This document shows, piece after piece, positions 3,004-50,983 of a stretch of DNA of 64,000 bases (position 1 is the first letter of the stretch; each line of letters begins with the position of its first letter). The position numbers and the translations under genes are program-made. Source of the DNA: Escherichia coli (GTDB lineage Bacteria > Pseudomonadota > Gammaproteobacteria > Enterobacterales > Enterobacteriaceae); assembly GCF_044324785.1 (NCBI RefSeq), contig NZ_CP172127.1; one strand, written 5' to 3'. The notes beneath the pieces are model-generated. The model was not told where the DNA came from, did no database searches, and worked only from the letters and a program-made list of their open reading frames with translations.

Positions 3004-3480
3004 TCAGTGGAGGAAATAGTTTTCGGTAACGTTGTTTTGCCCTTCATCGTCAGTCGGTAACAGCAGTTGATGGGCATTAGCTTCAAGAATGACCATCGAA
3101 ATCTGCTCTTCGCTCTGACGCACGAACCATGCAAACTGCTCATAGGTTACGCCCTGCATAACGGATAAAGACTGGCAAACCACCAGCTTTGGCAGATTAT
3201 CATCCTGCATATCAAGAAATGCTTTCACGGTCAGCGAACTGGCATTGATGGCTGATAAATCCGCCGCCAGCGGCAATACGGCTGAAGGTCGGACTTCCGC
3301 CATGGCAGAAAACAGGATCGTGTTATCGATCAGATCGATTTTGGCATCAAAGACACCGTCGAAATTCTGCATATGGGGCAGATGCAGAGCCTGACAGTTA
3401 TCACATTCAAAAAAACTCATCCCCAGGTCATCGAGCCATTGACGCAGCGTATCCAGACCAGGAACGACCAGCGATGTCAT
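3004..3480 (-). CDS. ybjN: YbjN, putative sensory transduction regulator (158 aa)
   Basis: ORF translation from MTSLVVPGLDTLRQWLDDLGMSFFECDNCQALHLPHM matches YbjN; last gene of the ybjC-nfsA-rimK-ybjN cluster. Confidence 0.85.
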   Translation of the reverse strand: MTSLVVPGLDTLRQWLDDLGMSFFECDNCQALHLPHMQNFDGVFDAKIDLIDNTILFSAMAEVRPSAVLPLAADLSAINASSLTVKAFLDMQDDNLPKLVVCQSLSVMQGVTYEQFAWFVRQSEEQISMVILEANAHQLLLPTDDEGQNNVTENYFLH

Positions 3481-37386: not shown

Positions 37387-38652
37387 ATGGCTTCTACTTT
37401 TACCAGCGACACATTGCCTGCCGATCACAAAGCAGCTATCCGTCAGATGAAGCACGCGCTGCGGGCGCAGCTTGGCGACGTCCAGCAGATCTTTAATCAG
37501 CTAAGCGATGACATTGCCACGCGAGTGGCTGAAATCAACGCACTCAAAGCACAGGGCGATGCCGTCTGGCCGGTGCTGTCTTATGCCGATATCAAAGCAG
37601 GTCATGTTACTGCAGAGCAGCGCGAACAAATTAAACGTCGCGGTTGTGCGGTGATAAAAGGCCATTTCCCCCGCGAACAAGCGCTAGGCTGGGATCAGTC
37701 GATGCTGGACTATCTGGACCGCAACCGCTTTGACGAGGTCTACAAAGGCCCCGGCGATAATTTCTTCGGGACACTCAGCGCTTCACGTCCCGAGATTTAC
37801 CCCATCTACTGGTCGCAGGCGCAAATGCAGGCCCGCCAGAGTGAAGAAATGGCGAATGTGCAGTCGTTTCTCAATCGTCTGTGGACATTTGAAAGTGATG
37901 GAAAGCAATGGTTTAACCCGGATGTGAGCGTCATCTACCCTGACCGTATCCGCCGCCGTCCGCCCGGAACGACCTCCAAAGGTCTTGGAGCGCATACCGA
38001 CTCCGGGGCGCTGGAACGCTGGCTGCTTCCAGCGTATCAGCACGTTTTCGCCAACGTCTTTAATGGCAATCTGGCGAAATACGATCCCTGGCATGCGGCA
38101 CATCGTACGGAAGTTGAAGAGTACACGGTGGACAACACCACCAAATGTTCCGTGTTTCGGACATTCCAGGGCTGGACAGCGCTCTCTGATATGCTGCCTG
38201 GTCAGGGGTTGCTGCACGTCGTGCCCATTCCTGAAGCCATGGCGTACGTACTGTTACGTCCGCTGCTTGATGATGTGCCGGAGGATGAACTGTGCGGCGT
38301 AGCGCCCGGAAGAGTGTTGCCGGTATCAGAGCAATGGCATCCACTGTTAATTGAGGCGTTAACCAGCATTCCAAAACTCGAGGCCGGAGACTCCGTCTGG
38401 TGGCACTGCGACGTCATCCATTCCGTTGCCCCCGTTGAAAATCAACAGGGTTGGGGCAACGTGATGTACATTCCTGCGGCACCGATGTGCGAGAAAAATC
38501 TTGCCTACGCGCACAAGGTGAAGGCCGCACTGGAAAAAGGCGCATCGCCGGGCGACTTCCCGCGCGAGGACTATGAAACAAACTGGGAAGGACGCTTTAC
38601 GCTTGCCGACCTCAACATTCACGGTAAGCGAGCGTTGGGAATCGACAGCTGA
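37387..38652 (+). CDS. ybiU: YbiU, DUF1479 protein (2OG-oxygenase-like), 421 aa
   Basis: ORF from MASTFTSDTLPADHKAAIRQMKHALRAQL... matches YbiU. Confidence 0.85.
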   Translation: MASTFTSDTLPADHKAAIRQMKHALRAQLGDVQQIFNQLSDDIATRVAEINALKAQGDAVWPVLSYADIKAGHVTAEQREQIKRRGCAVIKGHFPREQALGWDQSMLDYLDRNRFDEVYKGPGDNFFGTLSASRPEIYPIYWSQAQMQARQSEEMANVQSFLNRLWTFESDGKQWFNPDVSVIYPDRIRRRPPGTTSKGLGAHTDSGALERWLLPAYQHVFANVFNGNLAKYDPWHAAHRTEVEEYTVDNTTKCSVFRTFQGWTALSDMLPGQGLLHVVPIPEAMAYVLLRPLLDDVPEDELCGVAPGRVLPVSEQWHPLLIEALTSIPKLEAGDSVWWHCDVIHSVAPVENQQGWGNVMYIPAAPMCEKNLAYAHKVKAALEKGASPGDFPREDYETNWEGRFTLADLNIHGKRALGIDS

Positions 38653-39722
38653 GTGTCGTACAGCCCTTCCCGTTCCACGGCGGTGTTCCCTTTTCCTGGG
38701 CGAACCCGCCGCACTGACTCCCGCACCGCCAATCGTCCGTGCAGCAGCAGCGAGCCCACCGGAGCATCCGGGCGAATCAGCCGCTGTTGCAACATTTGCA
38801 CCGCTTCATTGCCTAGCTCATCGCGTGGCACATGCACAGCCGTCAGGGGAACATCCTCGATTGCCGCAAGGTTAAAGCCGTCGATACTCATCACCGAGAC
38901 ATCCTGTGGTACGCGCAGACCACGACGATGTAGCGCATTTACCGTTCCCGCCGCCATAAAATCCCCGCCGACCAGAAACGCCGTCGGCAACGTCTTGCCA
39001 TTGGCGGCATCCAGCCACGCTCCGACCTTTTCTTCCGCTTCTTTAGCGCTAAAACTGCTGATATTCAGCAAATGACGGTCATGGTGAAAGGCCAGATTAT
39101 GCTGACGCCATGATTCTTTAATCCCTGCAAACCGCTGCTCCATAGTGTAGCGGCGCAGGCACATCACATTCATCACCTCCCGGTGACCCATTTCAAACAG
39201 ATAGCGGGCGGCGAACGCGCCAATTAACCGATGGTCCGGCGCAATCGCCGGGAGGCGCATTCGTTCATCACGGCAGTTGATCAGCACACAAGGCTTAGCG
39301 AGATCGGCGGCCAGATCATGGATGTGCGGATCGTCAATCCCCAGCAGGATCGCCGCCTGCGTATCTGCTTCATTCATCCGCGAGAGAAATAGCGCGGGAT
39401 CGCTGTCAAACTCCTCCAGCGCGCAGTAACGCAGCCGCACTTCATGCGGCGATAACGCTTTGCTGATGCTCTGGATCACACGGTAATAAAAGATATCAGA
39501 TCGTTGGTCAAAAGCGCGTTGCGGCGCGAAAATAATCAGGTTGTTCAGCAACATACGACCTGCTGCCATGCCATCCATCACGCCCAACTCACGCGCGCAG
39601 GCCAGCACCTGTTCGCGAGCGCGTGCACTGGTATTCGCTTTGCCAGCCAGCACCCGCGAAACCGTACTCGGCGATAGCCCGGTACGTGCGGCGATATCGG
39701 CGATTTTCAGCTTCTTGTCCAT
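38619..39722 (-). CDS. LacI-family transcriptional regulator (accessory, not in K-12 at this position), about 367 aa with an unusually long C-terminal tail
   Basis: MDKKLKIADIAARTGLSPSTVSRVLAGKANTSARAREQVLACARELGV... is a LacI-type HTH followed by a periplasmic-binding-protein-like sugar domain; its 3' end overlaps the ybiU 3' end by 34 nt. Confidence 0.7.
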   Translation of the reverse strand: MDKKLKIADIAARTGLSPSTVSRVLAGKANTSARAREQVLACARELGVMDGMAAGRMLLNNLIIFAPQRAFDQRSDIFYYRVIQSISKALSPHEVRLRYCALEEFDSDPALFLSRMNEADTQAAILLGIDDPHIHDLAADLAKPCVLINCRDERMRLPAIAPDHRLIGAFAARYLFEMGHREVMNVMCLRRYTMEQRFAGIKESWRQHNLAFHHDRHLLNISSFSAKEAEEKVGAWLDAANGKTLPTAFLVGGDFMAAGTVNALHRRGLRVPQDVSVMSIDGFNLAAIEDVPLTAVHVPRDELGNEAVQMLQQRLIRPDAPVGSLLLHGRLAVRESVRRVRPGKGNTAVEREGLYDTQLSIPNARLP

Positions 39723-40016
39723 TTTGTGATCTGCCTCTAATTCGGAAATGACAGAATTTTCATGAGCAAAAAAGCCCATTCTGTCTGGCATTAAATCCAT
39801 TTCAGTAATGTATATCAGTCACTCATGGAAAAACGTGCACAAAACCCGCTTTCTTTCGCTTTTAGGGTCTCTTACTGTGAATTGGTAGAACAACTTCCAT
39901 ACAAAAATAATGGAAAAACGAACAACAAAGACTTTATTTATCAAAAAGTTAAAAGTGGTGTGACAACTCCATTCTGACGTTGCCGCACAAACCCTATACC
40001 ATTCTGTGGAGTGCAT
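39723..40016. promoter_or_regulatory. Divergent control region between the LacI-family regulator and the MFS-GH31 genes
   Basis: 294-bp AT-rich, ORF-free intergenic region between divergently oriented genes; position inferred, no operator identified. Confidence 0.4.
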
Positions 40017-41318
40017 ATGAGTCAGGGTATCAATAACGATATGACTGCCAGTAAACCGCGCCATATCGTCAAAAATCTGCGTTGGTGGATACTGGTCCTT
40101 TTTTTGCTCGGTGTTACTGTCAACTACATCACGCGTAACTCGCTGGGTATTCTCGCCCCCGAACTGAAAAGCAGCCTGGGGATTACCACCGAACAATATT
40201 CCTGGATTGTAGGTGCTTTCCAGCTCGCCTATACCCTATTCCAACCGTTGTGCGGATGGCTGATTGACGTCATTGGCCTCAAACTGGGCTTTATGATCTG
40301 CGCGGGACTGTGGGCACTGGCCTGTCTGATGCATGCGGGGGCGGGAAACTGGGTACATCTGGCGCTGTTGCGCTTCTTTATGGGCGGTGCGGAAGCCGCA
40401 GCAACCCCAGCAAACGCCAAAACCATCGGTGAATGGTTTCCAAAATCAGAACGCCCGATCGCCGCAGGCTGGGCAGGCGTCGGTTTTTCCATCGGTGCCA
40501 TGCTGGCCCCACCGATTATCTATTTTGCCCACGCTTCATTCGGCTGGCAGGGTGCATTTATGTTCACTGGCATCCTGGCGATGCTGTGGGTCGTGCTGTG
40601 GTGGGCGTTCTATCACAGCCCGGATAAGCATCCTAACCTCAGCAAAGCCGAGCTGGACTTTATTCGCCAGGATAACGAAGCGCCCCCGGTCAAGTTACCC
40701 TTTCTGACCGCACTGAAAACCGTGGGCAAAAATAAACGCTTTTACGGTATCGCTATCCCGGCCTTTATGGCAGAACCGGCGTGGGCGGTGATGAGTTTCT
40801 GGGTTCCGCTATACCTGTCCAAAACCTATGGCATGGACCTGAAGCAGATCGCATTATTCGCCTGGTTGCCGTTCCTCGCCGCTGATCTTGGCAGTATTGC
40901 CAGCGGCTATCTGACCAAACTTTACACCCGCCTGTTTGGGCTGAGTCGTGTGAACTCCGTTGTCGCATCATCGGTCAGTGGCGCATTCCTGATGGTTTCG
41001 CTGGCGGTGATGGCCTTTACCAATAACCCGTATATCGCCATCGTCCTTATCTCCATCGGCGGCTTCGGTCACCAGATCATCTCCTGCATGCTAAGCGCAC
41101 TGGTGGTGGAATCCTTCGACAAAGGTCAGATGGCCACTGTTAACGGCATGCGCGGTTCTGCCGCGTGGATCGCAAGTTTCCTGTTCTCCCTGATAATCGG
41201 GGTTACCGCAGACAAAATCGGCTTTAACCCCCTGTTTATCGCCATGGGCTTCTTTGACCTGATTGGCGCTTTCTTCCTGGTCACCTTTATTGCTGAACGT
41301 CGCGCAAAACGCGCCTGA
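40017..41318 (+). CDS. MFS transporter resembling the anion:cation symporter family (ExuT/GudP/DgoT-like), about 433 aa
   Basis: 12-TM ORF with N-terminal sequence ...NYITRNSLGILAPELKSSLGITTEQYSWIVGAFQLAYTLFQP typical of ACS-family transporters; RBS ggag 6 nt before the ATG at 40017. Confidence 0.7.
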   Translation: MSQGINNDMTASKPRHIVKNLRWWILVLFLLGVTVNYITRNSLGILAPELKSSLGITTEQYSWIVGAFQLAYTLFQPLCGWLIDVIGLKLGFMICAGLWALACLMHAGAGNWVHLALLRFFMGGAEAAATPANAKTIGEWFPKSERPIAAGWAGVGFSIGAMLAPPIIYFAHASFGWQGAFMFTGILAMLWVVLWWAFYHSPDKHPNLSKAELDFIRQDNEAPPVKLPFLTALKTVGKNKRFYGIAIPAFMAEPAWAVMSFWVPLYLSKTYGMDLKQIALFAWLPFLAADLGSIASGYLTKLYTRLFGLSRVNSVVASSVSGAFLMVSLAVMAFTNNPYIAIVLISIGGFGHQIISCMLSALVVESFDKGQMATVNGMRGSAAWIASFLFSLIIGVTADKIGFNPLFIAMGFFDLIGAFFLVTFIAERRAKRA

Positions 41319-41332
41319 GAGTGGATGTAAAC

Positions 41333-43696
41333 ATGAAAACGCTGAAAAACTGGACCCTGCACAAACAGTCTGCCCACCACGTTGAACTGCTGGTCGATGG
41401 CCAGCATATCCTGTGCCTGTACGTGCTGGAAGAAAATCTGTTCCGCGTGCTGTTAAAACGCAAAGGCGAGCTGGCGCTGGATCGCACCTGGAGCATTGCT
41501 CCGGCGCAGGATGTGCCATGGGAAGGGCGCAGCCGCGAAGATCTCAGCGGCTTTAGCCTGCCCGCGTGGACATTGATCCAGCACGACGACACCGTGGTTA
41601 TCGCCACCGAGTCACTGCGTGTCACCGTTCACCAGCCGCTGTGGCTGGAGTGGCACTATCGTAACAACGAAGGCGAATGGCTGCCGTTGGTGAATGACCG
41701 CCCGACCAGCGCTTATCTGCTGAATGCCCACGGCGATGGCGTGGCACACTATCAGAGCCGTCGTAAAGATGAACGCTTTTATGGCCTCGGAGATAAAGCC
41801 GGCGACCTGCAACGCAACGGTAAACGTTACGAGATGCGTAACCTCGACGCGATGGGCTACAACGCCGTTAGTACTGACCCGCTGTACAAACACATTCCAT
41901 TCACCATCACCCGCCGCGATGACATTAGCTTCGGCCTGTTTTATGACAACCTCAGCAGCTGCTGGCTGGATCTGGGCAACGAGATCGACAACTACCACAC
42001 CGCCTATCGCCGCTGGCAGGCGGAAGCGGGTGATATCGACTACTACCTGTTTACCGGCGAACGCGTACTTGATATCACCAAAGCCTTCGTACGCCTGACC
42101 GGAAAAACCCTGTTCGGACCGAAATGGAGCCTGGGCTACAGCGGTTCAACTATGCACTACACCGATGCGCCGGACGCACAAAATCAGTTGATGAACTTTA
42201 TCCGCCTGTGTGAAGAACATGCAATTCCCTGCGATTCGTTCCAGCTCTCTTCCGGTTATACCTCAATTAACGGCAAACGCTATGTGTTCAACTGGAACTA
42301 CGACAAAGTGCCGCAGCCGAAAGTGATGAGCCAGGCATTTCACAATGCTGGTTTGCACCTGGCCGCCAATATCAAGCCGTGCCTGTTGCAGGATCACCCA
42401 CGCTATAACGAAGTGGCAGAAAGAGGACTGTTCATCCGTGATTCAGAAACAGATGAACCAGAACGTTCCAGCTTCTGGGATGACGAAGGTTCTAACCTCG
42501 ACTTTACTAATCCGCAGACCATCCAGTGGTGGCAGGAAGGCGTGACCACACAGCTTCTGGAGATGGGTATCGACTCCACCTGGAACGACAACAACGAATT
42601 CGAAGTATGGGACGGTGAAGCACGCTGTCACGGCTTTGGTCAGACGATCGCGATCAAACATATTCGCCCAGTGATGCCACTGCTGATGATGCGAGCCTCG
42701 ATGGAAGCCCAGCAGCGTTTCGCTCCGGAAAAACGTCCGTACTTGATCTCCCGCTCCGGCTGCGCGGGAATGCAGCGCTACGTGCAGACCTGGAGTGGCG
42801 ATAACCGCACTAGCTGGGACACTCTGCGCTACAACACCCGCATGGGTCTGGGGATGAGCCTCTCCGGGTTGTATAACCTCGGTCACGACGTCGGCGGTTT
42901 CTCCGGTGATAAACCGGACCCGGAACTGTTTGTACGCTGGGTACAAAACGGCGTGATGCATCCGCGCTTTACGATTCACTCATGGAACGATGACCATACC
43001 GTAAACGAACCGTGGATGTATCCGGGCGTCACTCCGGCGATCCGCAGCGCTATTGAGTTGCGCTATCGCCTGCTGCCCTACTTTTATACCCTGATGTGGC
43101 AGGCATACGCCGATGATGAACCAATGCTACGTCCGACTTTCCTTGACCACGAGCACGACGTTCAGACTTTTGAAGAGTGTGATGACTTCCTGCTTGGTCG
43201 CGATATTTTGGTTGCCAGCGTCGTAGAGCAAGGCGAGCGCCAGCGCCGTGTATGGCTGCCAGATAACGAAACTGGCTGGTACGATTTCTACAACGGCGAA
43301 TGGTTCAGTGGCGGTCAGTGGATCACCCTCGACGCACCGCTGGAGAAACTGCCGCTGATGGTGCGTGCCGGGGCTGGTCTACCGCTCAGCAAACGCATCA
43401 CCTATGTGAGCGCAGAACAAGACGATACCCGCGAACTGAAACTGTTCCCGCTGAAAGGTGTGGGCACAACGTCCGGCCTGCTGTTTGAAGACGATGGCGA
43501 AAGCTGGGGCTACCAAACTGGTAATGCGCTTTGGGTGGAATGGGAAATGGTTTGCGATGGGGCGACCATCAACCTGAAAGTCAACGCGCGCGGGGATTAT
43601 CGTCCTGCATGGAGTGCACTGAAAGTGTCATTACCATTGGAAGAAAAACGCACGCTGCTGGTCAATGGTGTTGAAGGGAGTGAATGGATGCGTTAA
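41333..43696 (+). CDS. Glycoside hydrolase family 31 alpha-glycosidase (about 787 aa)
   Basis: Carries GH31 hallmark motifs: TWNDNNEF (catalytic nucleophile region), RSGCAGMQRY...WSGDN (acid/base region), GHDVGGF; tightly linked (2-14 bp) downstream of the transporter. Confidence 0.75.
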   Translation: MKTLKNWTLHKQSAHHVELLVDGQHILCLYVLEENLFRVLLKRKGELALDRTWSIAPAQDVPWEGRSREDLSGFSLPAWTLIQHDDTVVIATESLRVTVHQPLWLEWHYRNNEGEWLPLVNDRPTSAYLLNAHGDGVAHYQSRRKDERFYGLGDKAGDLQRNGKRYEMRNLDAMGYNAVSTDPLYKHIPFTITRRDDISFGLFYDNLSSCWLDLGNEIDNYHTAYRRWQAEAGDIDYYLFTGERVLDITKAFVRLTGKTLFGPKWSLGYSGSTMHYTDAPDAQNQLMNFIRLCEEHAIPCDSFQLSSGYTSINGKRYVFNWNYDKVPQPKVMSQAFHNAGLHLAANIKPCLLQDHPRYNEVAERGLFIRDSETDEPERSSFWDDEGSNLDFTNPQTIQWWQEGVTTQLLEMGIDSTWNDNNEFEVWDGEARCHGFGQTIAIKHIRPVMPLLMMRASMEAQQRFAPEKRPYLISRSGCAGMQRYVQTWSGDNRTSWDTLRYNTRMGLGMSLSGLYNLGHDVGGFSGDKPDPELFVRWVQNGVMHPRFTIHSWNDDHTVNEPWMYPGVTPAIRSAIELRYRLLPYFYTLMWQAYADDEPMLRPTFLDHEHDVQTFEECDDFLLGRDILVASVVEQGERQRRVWLPDNETGWYDFYNGEWFSGGQWITLDAPLEKLPLMVRAGAGLPLSKRITYVSAEQDDTRELKLFPLKGVGTTSGLLFEDDGESWGYQTGNALWVEWEMVCDGATINLKVNARGDYRPAWSALKVSLPLEEKRTLLVNGVEGSEWMR

Positions 43697-50467: not shown

Positions 50468-50983
50468 TTAGAAGCGGTAACCAACACCGGCAATCCAGGT
50501 GCCTACGTCAACGCTACGAATACGGCTCTGCTCGTAAGAGAAGTCCAGAGCAACGTTTTCCATCGGGTTGAACTGCAGACCAGCACCGTAGGAGAAACCG
50601 TAGTCGCTGGTGTCGTGTTTGTAGGTCGGGTATTCAGTGGTCTGGAATTTACCATAACCCACACCCACTACACCGTAGATGCTTGCCCAGTCGTTAATGC
50701 GGTAAGCCGGACCAGCAGTGATGCCGTAGTACTGGTTTTTGTTGTAGTCACCAGAGCTTGCAGTACGGCTTTTCTCGGTGTAAGTGAAAGAACCGATCAC
50801 ACCCAGCGGGCTGTTGTCTTCTTCATAGCGGTATTTCAGGTTGAAACCGCCCATTTTGTTCATTTGGCCCTGAGCGTCGCTCTGTGCGTAACCGCCAGTT
50901 ACGGTAGAAGTCGCAGCTACGGAAGTACCTGCGGTGAAAGCCAGAACTGCGGCCAGTGCTGAAAGACATGCAATTTTTTTCAT
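50468..50983 (-). CDS. ompX: Outer membrane protein X (171 aa)
   Basis: MKKIACLSALAAVLAFTAGTSVAATSTVTGGYAQSDAQGQMNKMGGFNLKYRYEEDNSPLGVIGSFTYTEK...IAGVGYRF matches OmpX including the C-terminal Phe. Confidence 0.95.
   Translation of the reverse strand: MKKIACLSALAAVLAFTAGTSVAATSTVTGGYAQSDAQGQMNKMGGFNLKYRYEEDNSPLGVIGSFTYTEKSRTASSGDYNKNQYYGITAGPAYRINDWASIYGVVGVGYGKFQTTEYPTYKHDTSDYGFSYGAGLQFNPMENVALDFSYEQSRIRSVDVGTWIAGVGYRF

Follow-up and report, generated by a model that had tools for sequence, protein, structure and literature searches.

Control by GalR in the gal system uses two operators, OE at −60.5 and OI at +53.5, of which OE lies upstream of the −35 element; repression there relies both on contact with the alpha subunit of RNA polymerase and on looping. 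The lac main operator O1 and auxiliary operator O3 sit less than 100 bp apart and are bridged by one repressor, an arrangement in which distance matters and whose loop needs a C-terminal tetramerisation helix. At CytR/CRP promoters, a LacI-family protein acts upstream of the core promoter, with flexible octamer repeats and paired CRP sites. The operators of the family have been catalogued (PMC4052901): 1251 of 1303 LacI-family factors bind even palindromes (1173 of the 1303 with a central CG), only 78 of 1303 depart from CG at the centre or are degenerate there, and autoregulation is seen in 72% of the factors. The family operator is described there as an even palindrome of 16–22 bp formed by conserved inverted repeats, with even 16-bp palindromes as the norm and a usual position 30–140 nt upstream of the regulated start codon (PMC4052901).

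Here we analyse the spacer between two divergent genes in a 64,000-nucleotide stretch of E. coli DNA (the window, within which all positions are numbered). This spacer is 294 bp long (39723–40016), running from the 5′ end of a regulator open reading frame (ORF; 39722) to the start of a transporter gene (40017). The minus strand carries the LacI-family regulator (38619–39722, 367 aa; start codon 39722–39720, MDKKLKIADIAARTGLS...), and the plus strand an MFS transporter of the anion:cation-symporter type (40017–41318; MFS_1 by Pfam and NCBIfam) followed by a GH31 α-glycosidase (41321–43696; Pfam and NCBIfam), whose nearest solved structures are α-glucosidase II and a bacterial GH31 enzyme. The transporter gene has a Shine–Dalgarno GGAG (40008–40011, plus strand) 5 nt before its ATG at 40017, within a TGTGGAG conserved in the alignment described below. 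In E. coli the three genes form an insertion between ybiU and ybiT. The original prediction placed here a divergent, AT-rich control region of an accessory locus, and both its coordinates and its character are borne out: the spacer has 37.4% GC against 54.7% in 6.7 kb of flanking sequence, and it is found in 577 of 5426 complete E. coli genomes (~10%), chromosomal in every case. The spacer was also called ORF-free, which stands in that no conserved ORF is present but fails literally, as seven ORFs of at least 20 aa from a mechanical ORF listing overlap it and RefSeq starts the regulator inside it, at 39779.

We found no literature on this uncharacterised, accessory locus, which occurs in many Enterobacteriaceae genera. 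An autoregulated divergent operon under a LacI-type repressor is no surprise biologically, and the switch is an ordinary one; we consider it likely that the spacer controls, in both directions, a three-gene accessory locus for sugar utilisation and holds two cognate LacI-type operators working by the mechanism proposed below. The main value of the analysis is practical. It yields two defined 16-bp candidate sites with a family-wide consensus, a candidate promoter, a revised start codon for the regulator and an entry point to the substrate, and it adds an example of the minority class of LacI-family operators whose centre is not CG.

Scanning a single genome for each species gave 80 loci with regulators 69–97% identical, from ~30 enterobacterial genera, among them Kluyvera, Pseudocitrobacter, Citrobacter, Enterobacter, Klebsiella, Raoultella, Kosakonia, Leclercia, Edwardsiella, Cedecea and Buttiauxella, together with Salmonella diarizonae. 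The regulator/MFS/GH31 layout is complete in 74 of the 80, nearly all others ending at a contig or fetch boundary. Spacer lengths range from 255 to 312 bp across the loci. Aligning 79 orthologous spacers reveals an initial stretch of ~185 bp that is nearly free of indels, in which sharply conserved islands stand amid unconserved DNA. The same comparison settles where the regulator begins. The RefSeq/PGAP coding sequence starts at 39779, 57 nt upstream of 39722, which gives a protein of 386 aa and would place two of the conserved islands (O1 and block A, below) within coding sequence. This upstream extension is unconserved, with an in-frame stop 7–8 codons before MDKK in 9 of 79 orthologs and no alternative upstream start in 23 of 79; therefore 39722 is the supported start. 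All 79 orthologs (from MDKKLKIA onwards) and four distant relatives align from residue 1 of the regulator.

The strongest conserved island spans 39746–39763, and its 16-bp core (39748–39763; ATGACAGAATTTTCAT in E. coli) is the element that we term operator O1, a proposed autoregulatory site. O1 is a gapless 16-mer in 79/79 orthologs, with the family consensus ATGAAAAAATTTTCAT symmetric at seven of eight pairs; in three species it is the perfect palindrome ATGAAAAATTTTTCAT. The E. coli copy is a weak palindrome (5/8 symmetric pairs) that scores 19–20 bits with a position weight matrix (PWM). Its position is rigid: in all 75 orthologs scored, O1 starts 25 nt from the ATG of the regulator, and the O1 centre is 33 nt upstream of that ATG. 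The central dinucleotide is AA in 70 orthologs, AT in five and TT in three. The two arms differ in conservation: the right arm (ATTTTCA) is better conserved than the left, and on the regulator strand it reads GAAAAT, a recurrent −10-like hexamer.

A second site, O2 (39825–39840; ATGGAAAAACGTGCAC in E. coli; consensus ATGARAAnnnTTGCAY), is the proposed control site of the transporter operon. Scanning with a PWM derived solely from O1 picks out O2 in 45 of 79 orthologs (at least 8 bits), always at the same aligned position, against an expectation of 0.006 per shuffled spacer. In some species O2 is near-identical to O1 (ATGAAAATTTTTTCAC, ATGAAAAAACTTTCAT); the E. coli copy reaches 3.8 bits with the O1-only PWM and has three of eight symmetric pairs. 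The distance from O1 to O2, scored like that from O1 to the ATG in 75 orthologs, is 77 bp in 63 and 78 bp in 12, and is held across ~60 bp of unconserved sequence. An A-tract follows O2 immediately. The O2 centre lies 184 nt upstream of the transporter ATG, beyond the usual 30–140 nt range for family operators. A small plus-strand ORF that begins at the ATG in O2 was set aside: it has 50 codons in E. coli and stops after 5–16 codons in most orthologs.

O1 and O2 share the geometry of the LacI family, with TG at −7/−6, AA at −4/−3, TT at +3/+4 and CA at +6/+7 from the centre. Expressed as the pattern TGNAANNNNTTNCA with at most one mismatch, this geometry is matched by O1 in 78/79 orthologs and by O2 in 79/79; the pattern occurs four times in the E. 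coli spacer, where local composition predicts 0.2–0.4 (P ≤ 0.0006). Specificity extends to the surrounding DNA: of the 158 PWM matches of at least 12 bits in 957 kb of fetched sequence around the loci, 136 fall at the standard spacer coordinates, and most of the remaining 22 sit, as judged by coordinates rather than match by match, where the spacer is expected in differently offset loci. An extra strong match in the window, at 50968, was rejected as the first codons of ompX. Repeats picked from the E. coli sequence alone (CCATTCTGT, four copies; GACAGAAT/ATTCTGTC; ATGGAAAAACG, two copies) are conserved only where they fall inside O1 and O2. The motif ATGAAAAWWTTTTCAT can be used to search genomes for further members of the regulon.

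Set beside canonical LacI/GalR operators of the PurR, CcpA cre and Cra type (TGnAAnCGnTTnCA), O1 and O2 are alike in being even 16-bp palindromes with TG, AA, TT and CA at the same positions, and likewise lie upstream of and adjoining the regulator gene, which implies autoregulation. They differ in that their centre is AA, AT or TT rather than CG, that the E. coli copies are degenerate and that two sites stand at a fixed 77–78 bp. Taken singly, O1 has the even 16-bp palindrome, the TG..AA/TT..CA geometry and a position 30–140 bp upstream of the regulated start codon that mark a family operator; its lack of a central CG makes it a minority variant of the family and does not exclude it. This centre helps to explain how the site had escaped notice. 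The original prediction expected a LacI-type operator in the spacer, saw no palindrome by eye and proposed a search with a CG-centred core. Phylogenetic footprinting of the 79 orthologs, a check that the prediction also proposed, supports the operator itself, with O1 in every ortholog and O2 at a fixed 77–78 bp; the prediction had named the lack of a conserved palindrome over homologous loci as what would count against it, and such a palindrome is present. The CG-centred model does not hold: TGNANCGNTNCA has no match in the spacer even with one mismatch, because the sites are centred on AA, AT or TT, and its count across the window is at chance. The A/T centre together with the degeneracy of the E. 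coli copies accounts for the palindrome not being visible by eye.

The protein encoded next to these sites has the two parts expected of a LacI/GalR-family member, an N-terminal helix-turn-helix (PF00356, 33.8 bits, cut-off 27) and a periplasmic-binding-protein-like effector domain (PF13377, Peripla_BP_3, 97.8 bits; PF00532, 57 bits). Its best solved relatives are PurR, LacI and CcpA. The recognition helix, S17-x-S19-T-V-S-R23, is invariant in the 79 orthologs, matching the invariant operator; position 18 varies and is Pro in E. coli only. Residue 18 appears to co-vary with the left half-site of O1 (I with AAAAA, A with AAAGA, T with GGGAA, P with ACAGA). We rejected it as a specificity determinant, since only one arm changes and the pattern probably reflects shared ancestry. 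The hinge-helix leucine lever, L56 in LacI and L54 in PurR, corresponds to aligned position 57, where E. coli and 29 other orthologs have Met and 49 have Leu; this residue does not track the central base pair. Met57 was accordingly dropped as a cause of the non-CG centre, for the 49 of 79 orthologs with Leu have an A/T centre all the same.

Distant relatives of the regulator bear on whether it is this protein that reads the conserved motif. An exhaustive profile search shows a sharply bounded subfamily, with full-length relatives 55, 48, 46 and 42% identical, followed by generic LacI relatives at 33%. In the 55% and 48% relatives the site at offset 25 reads ATGAAAAAATTTTCAT and ATGAAAATTTTTTCAT, respectively, and a second site lies 78 and 75 bp from it. 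The 42% relative (L084), which retains block A, carries TTGACATTATTTTCAT at offset 26 and its second site 74 bp from there, in a different context, with three GFO/IDH/MocA oxidoreductase genes and next to dapB. In the 46% relative (L083), the palindrome is altered (GTGTAAATTTTTACAC, offset 26) and the recognition helix is altered too, S19 to G. The sites therefore co-occur with the LacI-family regulator gene among the 42–55% relatives and change with it in L083; they are co-inherited with the regulator gene and not with the cargo genes.

These relatives also weigh against a reading that we think quite improbable, in which the conserved blocks are promoter or leader elements or sites of an unrelated protein and the regulator binds elsewhere, for example at a repeat TTCCAT-N9-ATGGAA in block D. 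Block D (39890–39902, ACAACTTCCATAC) has 80–90% column conservation, is conserved as well as O2 and shows lineage-specific inverted repeats; the greater conservation of the right arm of O1, which doubles as the −10-like GAAAAT on the regulator strand, would also suit a promoter element. However, the O1/O2 motif is symmetric, repeated and of LacI-family geometry, it follows the regulator into another operon in L084, and in L083 it changes along with the recognition helix. Block D, by comparison, has a partner arm that shifts or vanishes among lineages. The 16-mer at 39885–39900 is an operator-like pseudo-site of E. coli and Kluyvera, and its geometry is matched in only 10 of 79 orthologs. A block D hairpin was also rejected, its inverted repeats being lineage-specific (mean z −1.8) with no common structure. 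As putative operators of the adjacent regulator itself, O1 and O2 are well supported at the level of sequence comparison.

A further conserved island, block A (39723–39733, TTTGTGATCTG), abuts the regulator start codon and is near-invariant in the 79 orthologs, occurring also in L081 (55% identical) and L084 (42%). It is a perfect CRP left half-site and includes GATC; read as TGTGA-N6-TCTAA it matches the CRP core at 8/10 positions, with the left half alone conserved. The locus resembles the CytR/CRP promoters in its predicted regulation from upstream and in having TTGCA-containing and CRP-like half-sites nearby. It differs in that there is no pair of good CRP sites and the operator is a contiguous palindrome, and the regulator itself has family-level similarity only to CytR (95 bits, cut-off 436). 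We also see little chance that CRP is what binds O2, and perhaps O1 and block A as well, which would make the second conserved block a site of catabolite activation. The Enterobacter-type O2 reads TGAGA-N6-GCACA, 8/10 of the core including the key G and C positions, and O1 is TGAAA-N6-TCACA in some species, which with block A gives this reading its appeal. Yet shuffled spacers yield 1.1 matches of at least 7/10 each, the O1 left halves never have the second G of TGTGA, and O2 is almost identical to O1 in many species. Moreover, relative to the predicted start a CRP register centred on O2 would stand at about −51.5, which falls between the two standard positions of −41.5 and −61.5, and block A, conserved in its left half only, overlaps the ribosome-binding region of the regulator. 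No full CRP site (TGTGA-N6-TCACA, both halves recognisable) at a standard distance was found in the spacer, the best match being block A (8/10); the E. coli copies of O1 and O2 score 6/10 and 7/10. A sigma-54 element at O2 was likewise discarded on inspection, the TGG-N7-TGCA being wrongly spaced and most orthologs having TGA, not TGG.

We return to O1 and O2 as operators of the regulator, whose function depends on where the promoters lie. The original prediction put both promoters in the spacer, and here the outcome is divided: the transporter side is backed by a conserved −10-like hexamer, from which a promoter can be inferred, and the regulator side gave no consistent placement. A sigma-70 PWM applied to the orthologs identified no universal promoter on either strand. 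On the plus strand, the best candidate for the −10 of the transporter/hydrolase promoter is TACTGT (39873–39878). TAnnnT occupies this column in 79/79 orthologs and begins exactly 48 nt after the O2 start in all 78 in which this distance was scored, leaving 32 bp between O2 and the hexamer. The relatives have TAnnnT 47–48 nt from O2 as well: TACGCT in L081, TATACT in L082 and TATGCT in L084, the last with TTGTGT at 17 bp. Transcription of the transporter operon would then start near G39885, with a predicted leader of ~132 nt, placing the centre of O2 near −52 and that of O1 near −130.

As a promoter this is poor. Its −10 hexamers in orthologs (TAAGGT, TACCCT, TACTGT) are matched with no TTGACA-like −35; the E. 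coli −35 is a weak TTTCTT (39850–39855), with TATTGC also among the hexamers, and the orthologous spacers contain no convincing −35 or activator site for the transporter promoter. A sigma-70-like match specific to E. coli, TTGGTA-18-AATAAT (39882–39911, plus strand; 9/12 in a consensus scan), was rejected: shuffles give 0.9 matches against the one observed, and a comparable match occurs in only 19 of 79 orthologs. On the regulator strand there are two partial promoter clusters, one with its −10 inside O1 and one with its −10 near 39862 (Enterobacter group). In the distant relatives, O1 overlaps the predicted regulator promoter elements or falls between them. We place the putative regulator promoter over O1 with moderate confidence; the −10-like GAAAAT, the hexamer of this kind that recurs most on the strand, fits the greater conservation of the O1 right arm.

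These positions suggest how the switch could work. O1 probably overlaps the regulator promoter or its transcription start, so that the regulator would repress its own gene. Without inducer, repressor dimers would occupy both O1 and O2, and the dimer at O2 would impede RNA polymerase from a position immediately preceding the −35 region; binding of the inducer, presumably α-glucoside-like and possibly an anionic sugar, would free both promoters. Sequence comparison shows the two sites, how well they are conserved, their symmetry and fixed spacing, and that they are inherited with the regulator gene; binding of the regulator to them, its repressive effect, the nature of the inducer and the transcription starts are what we infer. 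The predicted sites give a route to the substrate, through reporter fusions and operator-release assays with candidate α-glucosides. A point against this mechanism is that, should TAnnnT be the −10, the core promoter would have both operators upstream of it, an unusual arrangement for simple steric repression.

The nearest mechanistic precedent is OE of gal. Like GalR, the regulator would act as a LacI-family dimer with two operators, one of them upstream of the −35 of a catabolic promoter. The differences are that both sites here are upstream of the predicted catabolic promoter and bracket the regulator promoter region, and that they are 77 bp apart instead of ~114 bp; HU and a dimer–dimer contact are features of gal. 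The strictly conserved distance suggests that O1 and O2 may cooperate, either in binding or through a small DNA loop. As a pair less than 100 bp apart they resemble lac O1/O3. The regulator differs from LacI at its C terminus, where the last 30 residues are variable and inspection reveals no leucine heptad repeat; a LacI-style tetramer loop therefore lacks support.

The same spacings allow a different role for O2, which we rate as unlikely. Bound near −52, the regulator could recruit RNA polymerase to the transporter operon and repress only its own gene at O1, as an activator or a dual regulator. Cra, a LacI-family protein, activates from sites upstream of the promoter, and the constancy of the O2–TAnnnT distance (in 78/78 orthologs and within 1 nt in three relatives) would fit such a contact, as would a candidate promoter with a weak −35, a G/C-rich −10 and no CRP site at a standard activating distance. 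Against this, a regulator that loses DNA binding when it binds sugar makes no sense as the activator of a catabolic operon, and the transcription start from which the position is counted is itself a prediction. The local sugar regulators of the LacI family are for the most part repressors that the sugar releases (PMC4052901). A more speculative proposal is that the subfamily may bear a portable, rigid cassette, joined to the regulator gene itself and formed by the start codon, block A, O1, ~77 bp, O2, 32 bp and the −10 of the opposite operon. Control would then be exerted from near −52 through the polymerase alpha subunit, through a small loop as at GalR-OE or through effector-dependent activation, and not by simple occlusion; we regard this as possible but hold it tentatively.

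Two further elements lie between the candidate −10 and the transporter gene. The sequence TATCAAAAAGTTA at 39939–39951 (plus strand) is an IHF-like core that fits WATCAANNNNTTR and is preceded by an A/T tract; the core occurs at the same column in 12 of 79 orthologs under a strict definition and in 55 of 79 under a relaxed one, with shuffled spacers giving 0.03 and 0.18 per spacer. Block F (GGTGTGACAACT, 39957–39968) contains GTRTRAC in 55 of 79 orthologs and, in E. coli, is accompanied by an imperfect plus-strand hairpin (39958–39989; the whole element spans 39957–39989) of −10.4 kcal/mol (z = −1.9). A family-wide structure was rejected here, the family mean z being −0.36 and the complementarity no higher than in shuffles; an Rfam search of the spacer returned best scores of 13.8–24 bits against thresholds of 37–50, all from unrelated families. 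Absent in the Enterobacter group, the block F hairpin looks compensatory in the E. coli, Kluyvera and Citrobacter groups.

RefSeq/PGAP annotates the LacI-family regulator of the accessory locus as a protein of 386 aa starting at 39779, an extension (39723–39779) that takes in both block A of the spacer (39723–39733) and the proposed operator O1 (39748–39763). Comparative sequence evidence supports a start at 39722 (367 aa) over this annotated one. Position 18 of the regulator, encoded at 39669–39671, falls in the helix-turn-helix and corresponds to LacI Tyr17. Among the 79 aligned orthologues (one genome per species), proline occupies this position only in E. coli, the others having I, A, V, T, G or M. 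A relative with 42% identity, found next to dapB (L084), likewise has Pro18, and its operators carry TGACA half-sites of the kind seen in E. coli O1 (left arm). This paralogous regulator (L084–L087; 5001–6068 and upstream) adjoins dapB–carAB in other Enterobacterales, divergent from genes for three GFO/IDH/MocA oxidoreductases and an MFS_2 transporter; in the 212-bp spacer of the locus, block A, O1, O2 and the −10 are arranged as in the E. coli spacer.

Scanning the entire window with the operator matrix gave ATGCAATTTTTTTCAT as the top match (20.4 bits, 50968–50983). We rejected this as an operator: these bases encode the first residues of OmpX (MKKIAC..., minus strand), and codons of the Met-Lys-Lys-Ile-Ala type match the matrix by coincidence. 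A fourth match to the operator geometry, TTAAATCCATTTCA (39791–39804), lies between O1 and O2 (39825–39840) and is E. coli-specific, without conservation in other genera.

The 3′ ends of the regulator gene and the convergent ybiU overlap by ~34 nt (38619–38652, equivalent to 3397–3430 of RefSeq locus L088), and the accessory segment therefore starts within, or at the extreme end of, ybiU. The GC content of the accessory genes (38619–43696, ~55%) and the presence of their closest orthologues in Kluyvera (90–92% protein identity) together suggest horizontal acquisition from a Kluyvera-like donor. A search for a characterised close relative found none; judging from the type of transporter, the substrate may be an anionic alpha-glycoside. 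One record, L016 (CACSKA010000002.1), is labelled Chryseobacterium sp. 18061 and carries an Enterobacteriaceae-type locus near-identical to that of Citrobacter sp. 18056 (L008) from the same study; the L016 assembly is probably mislabelled or contaminated.
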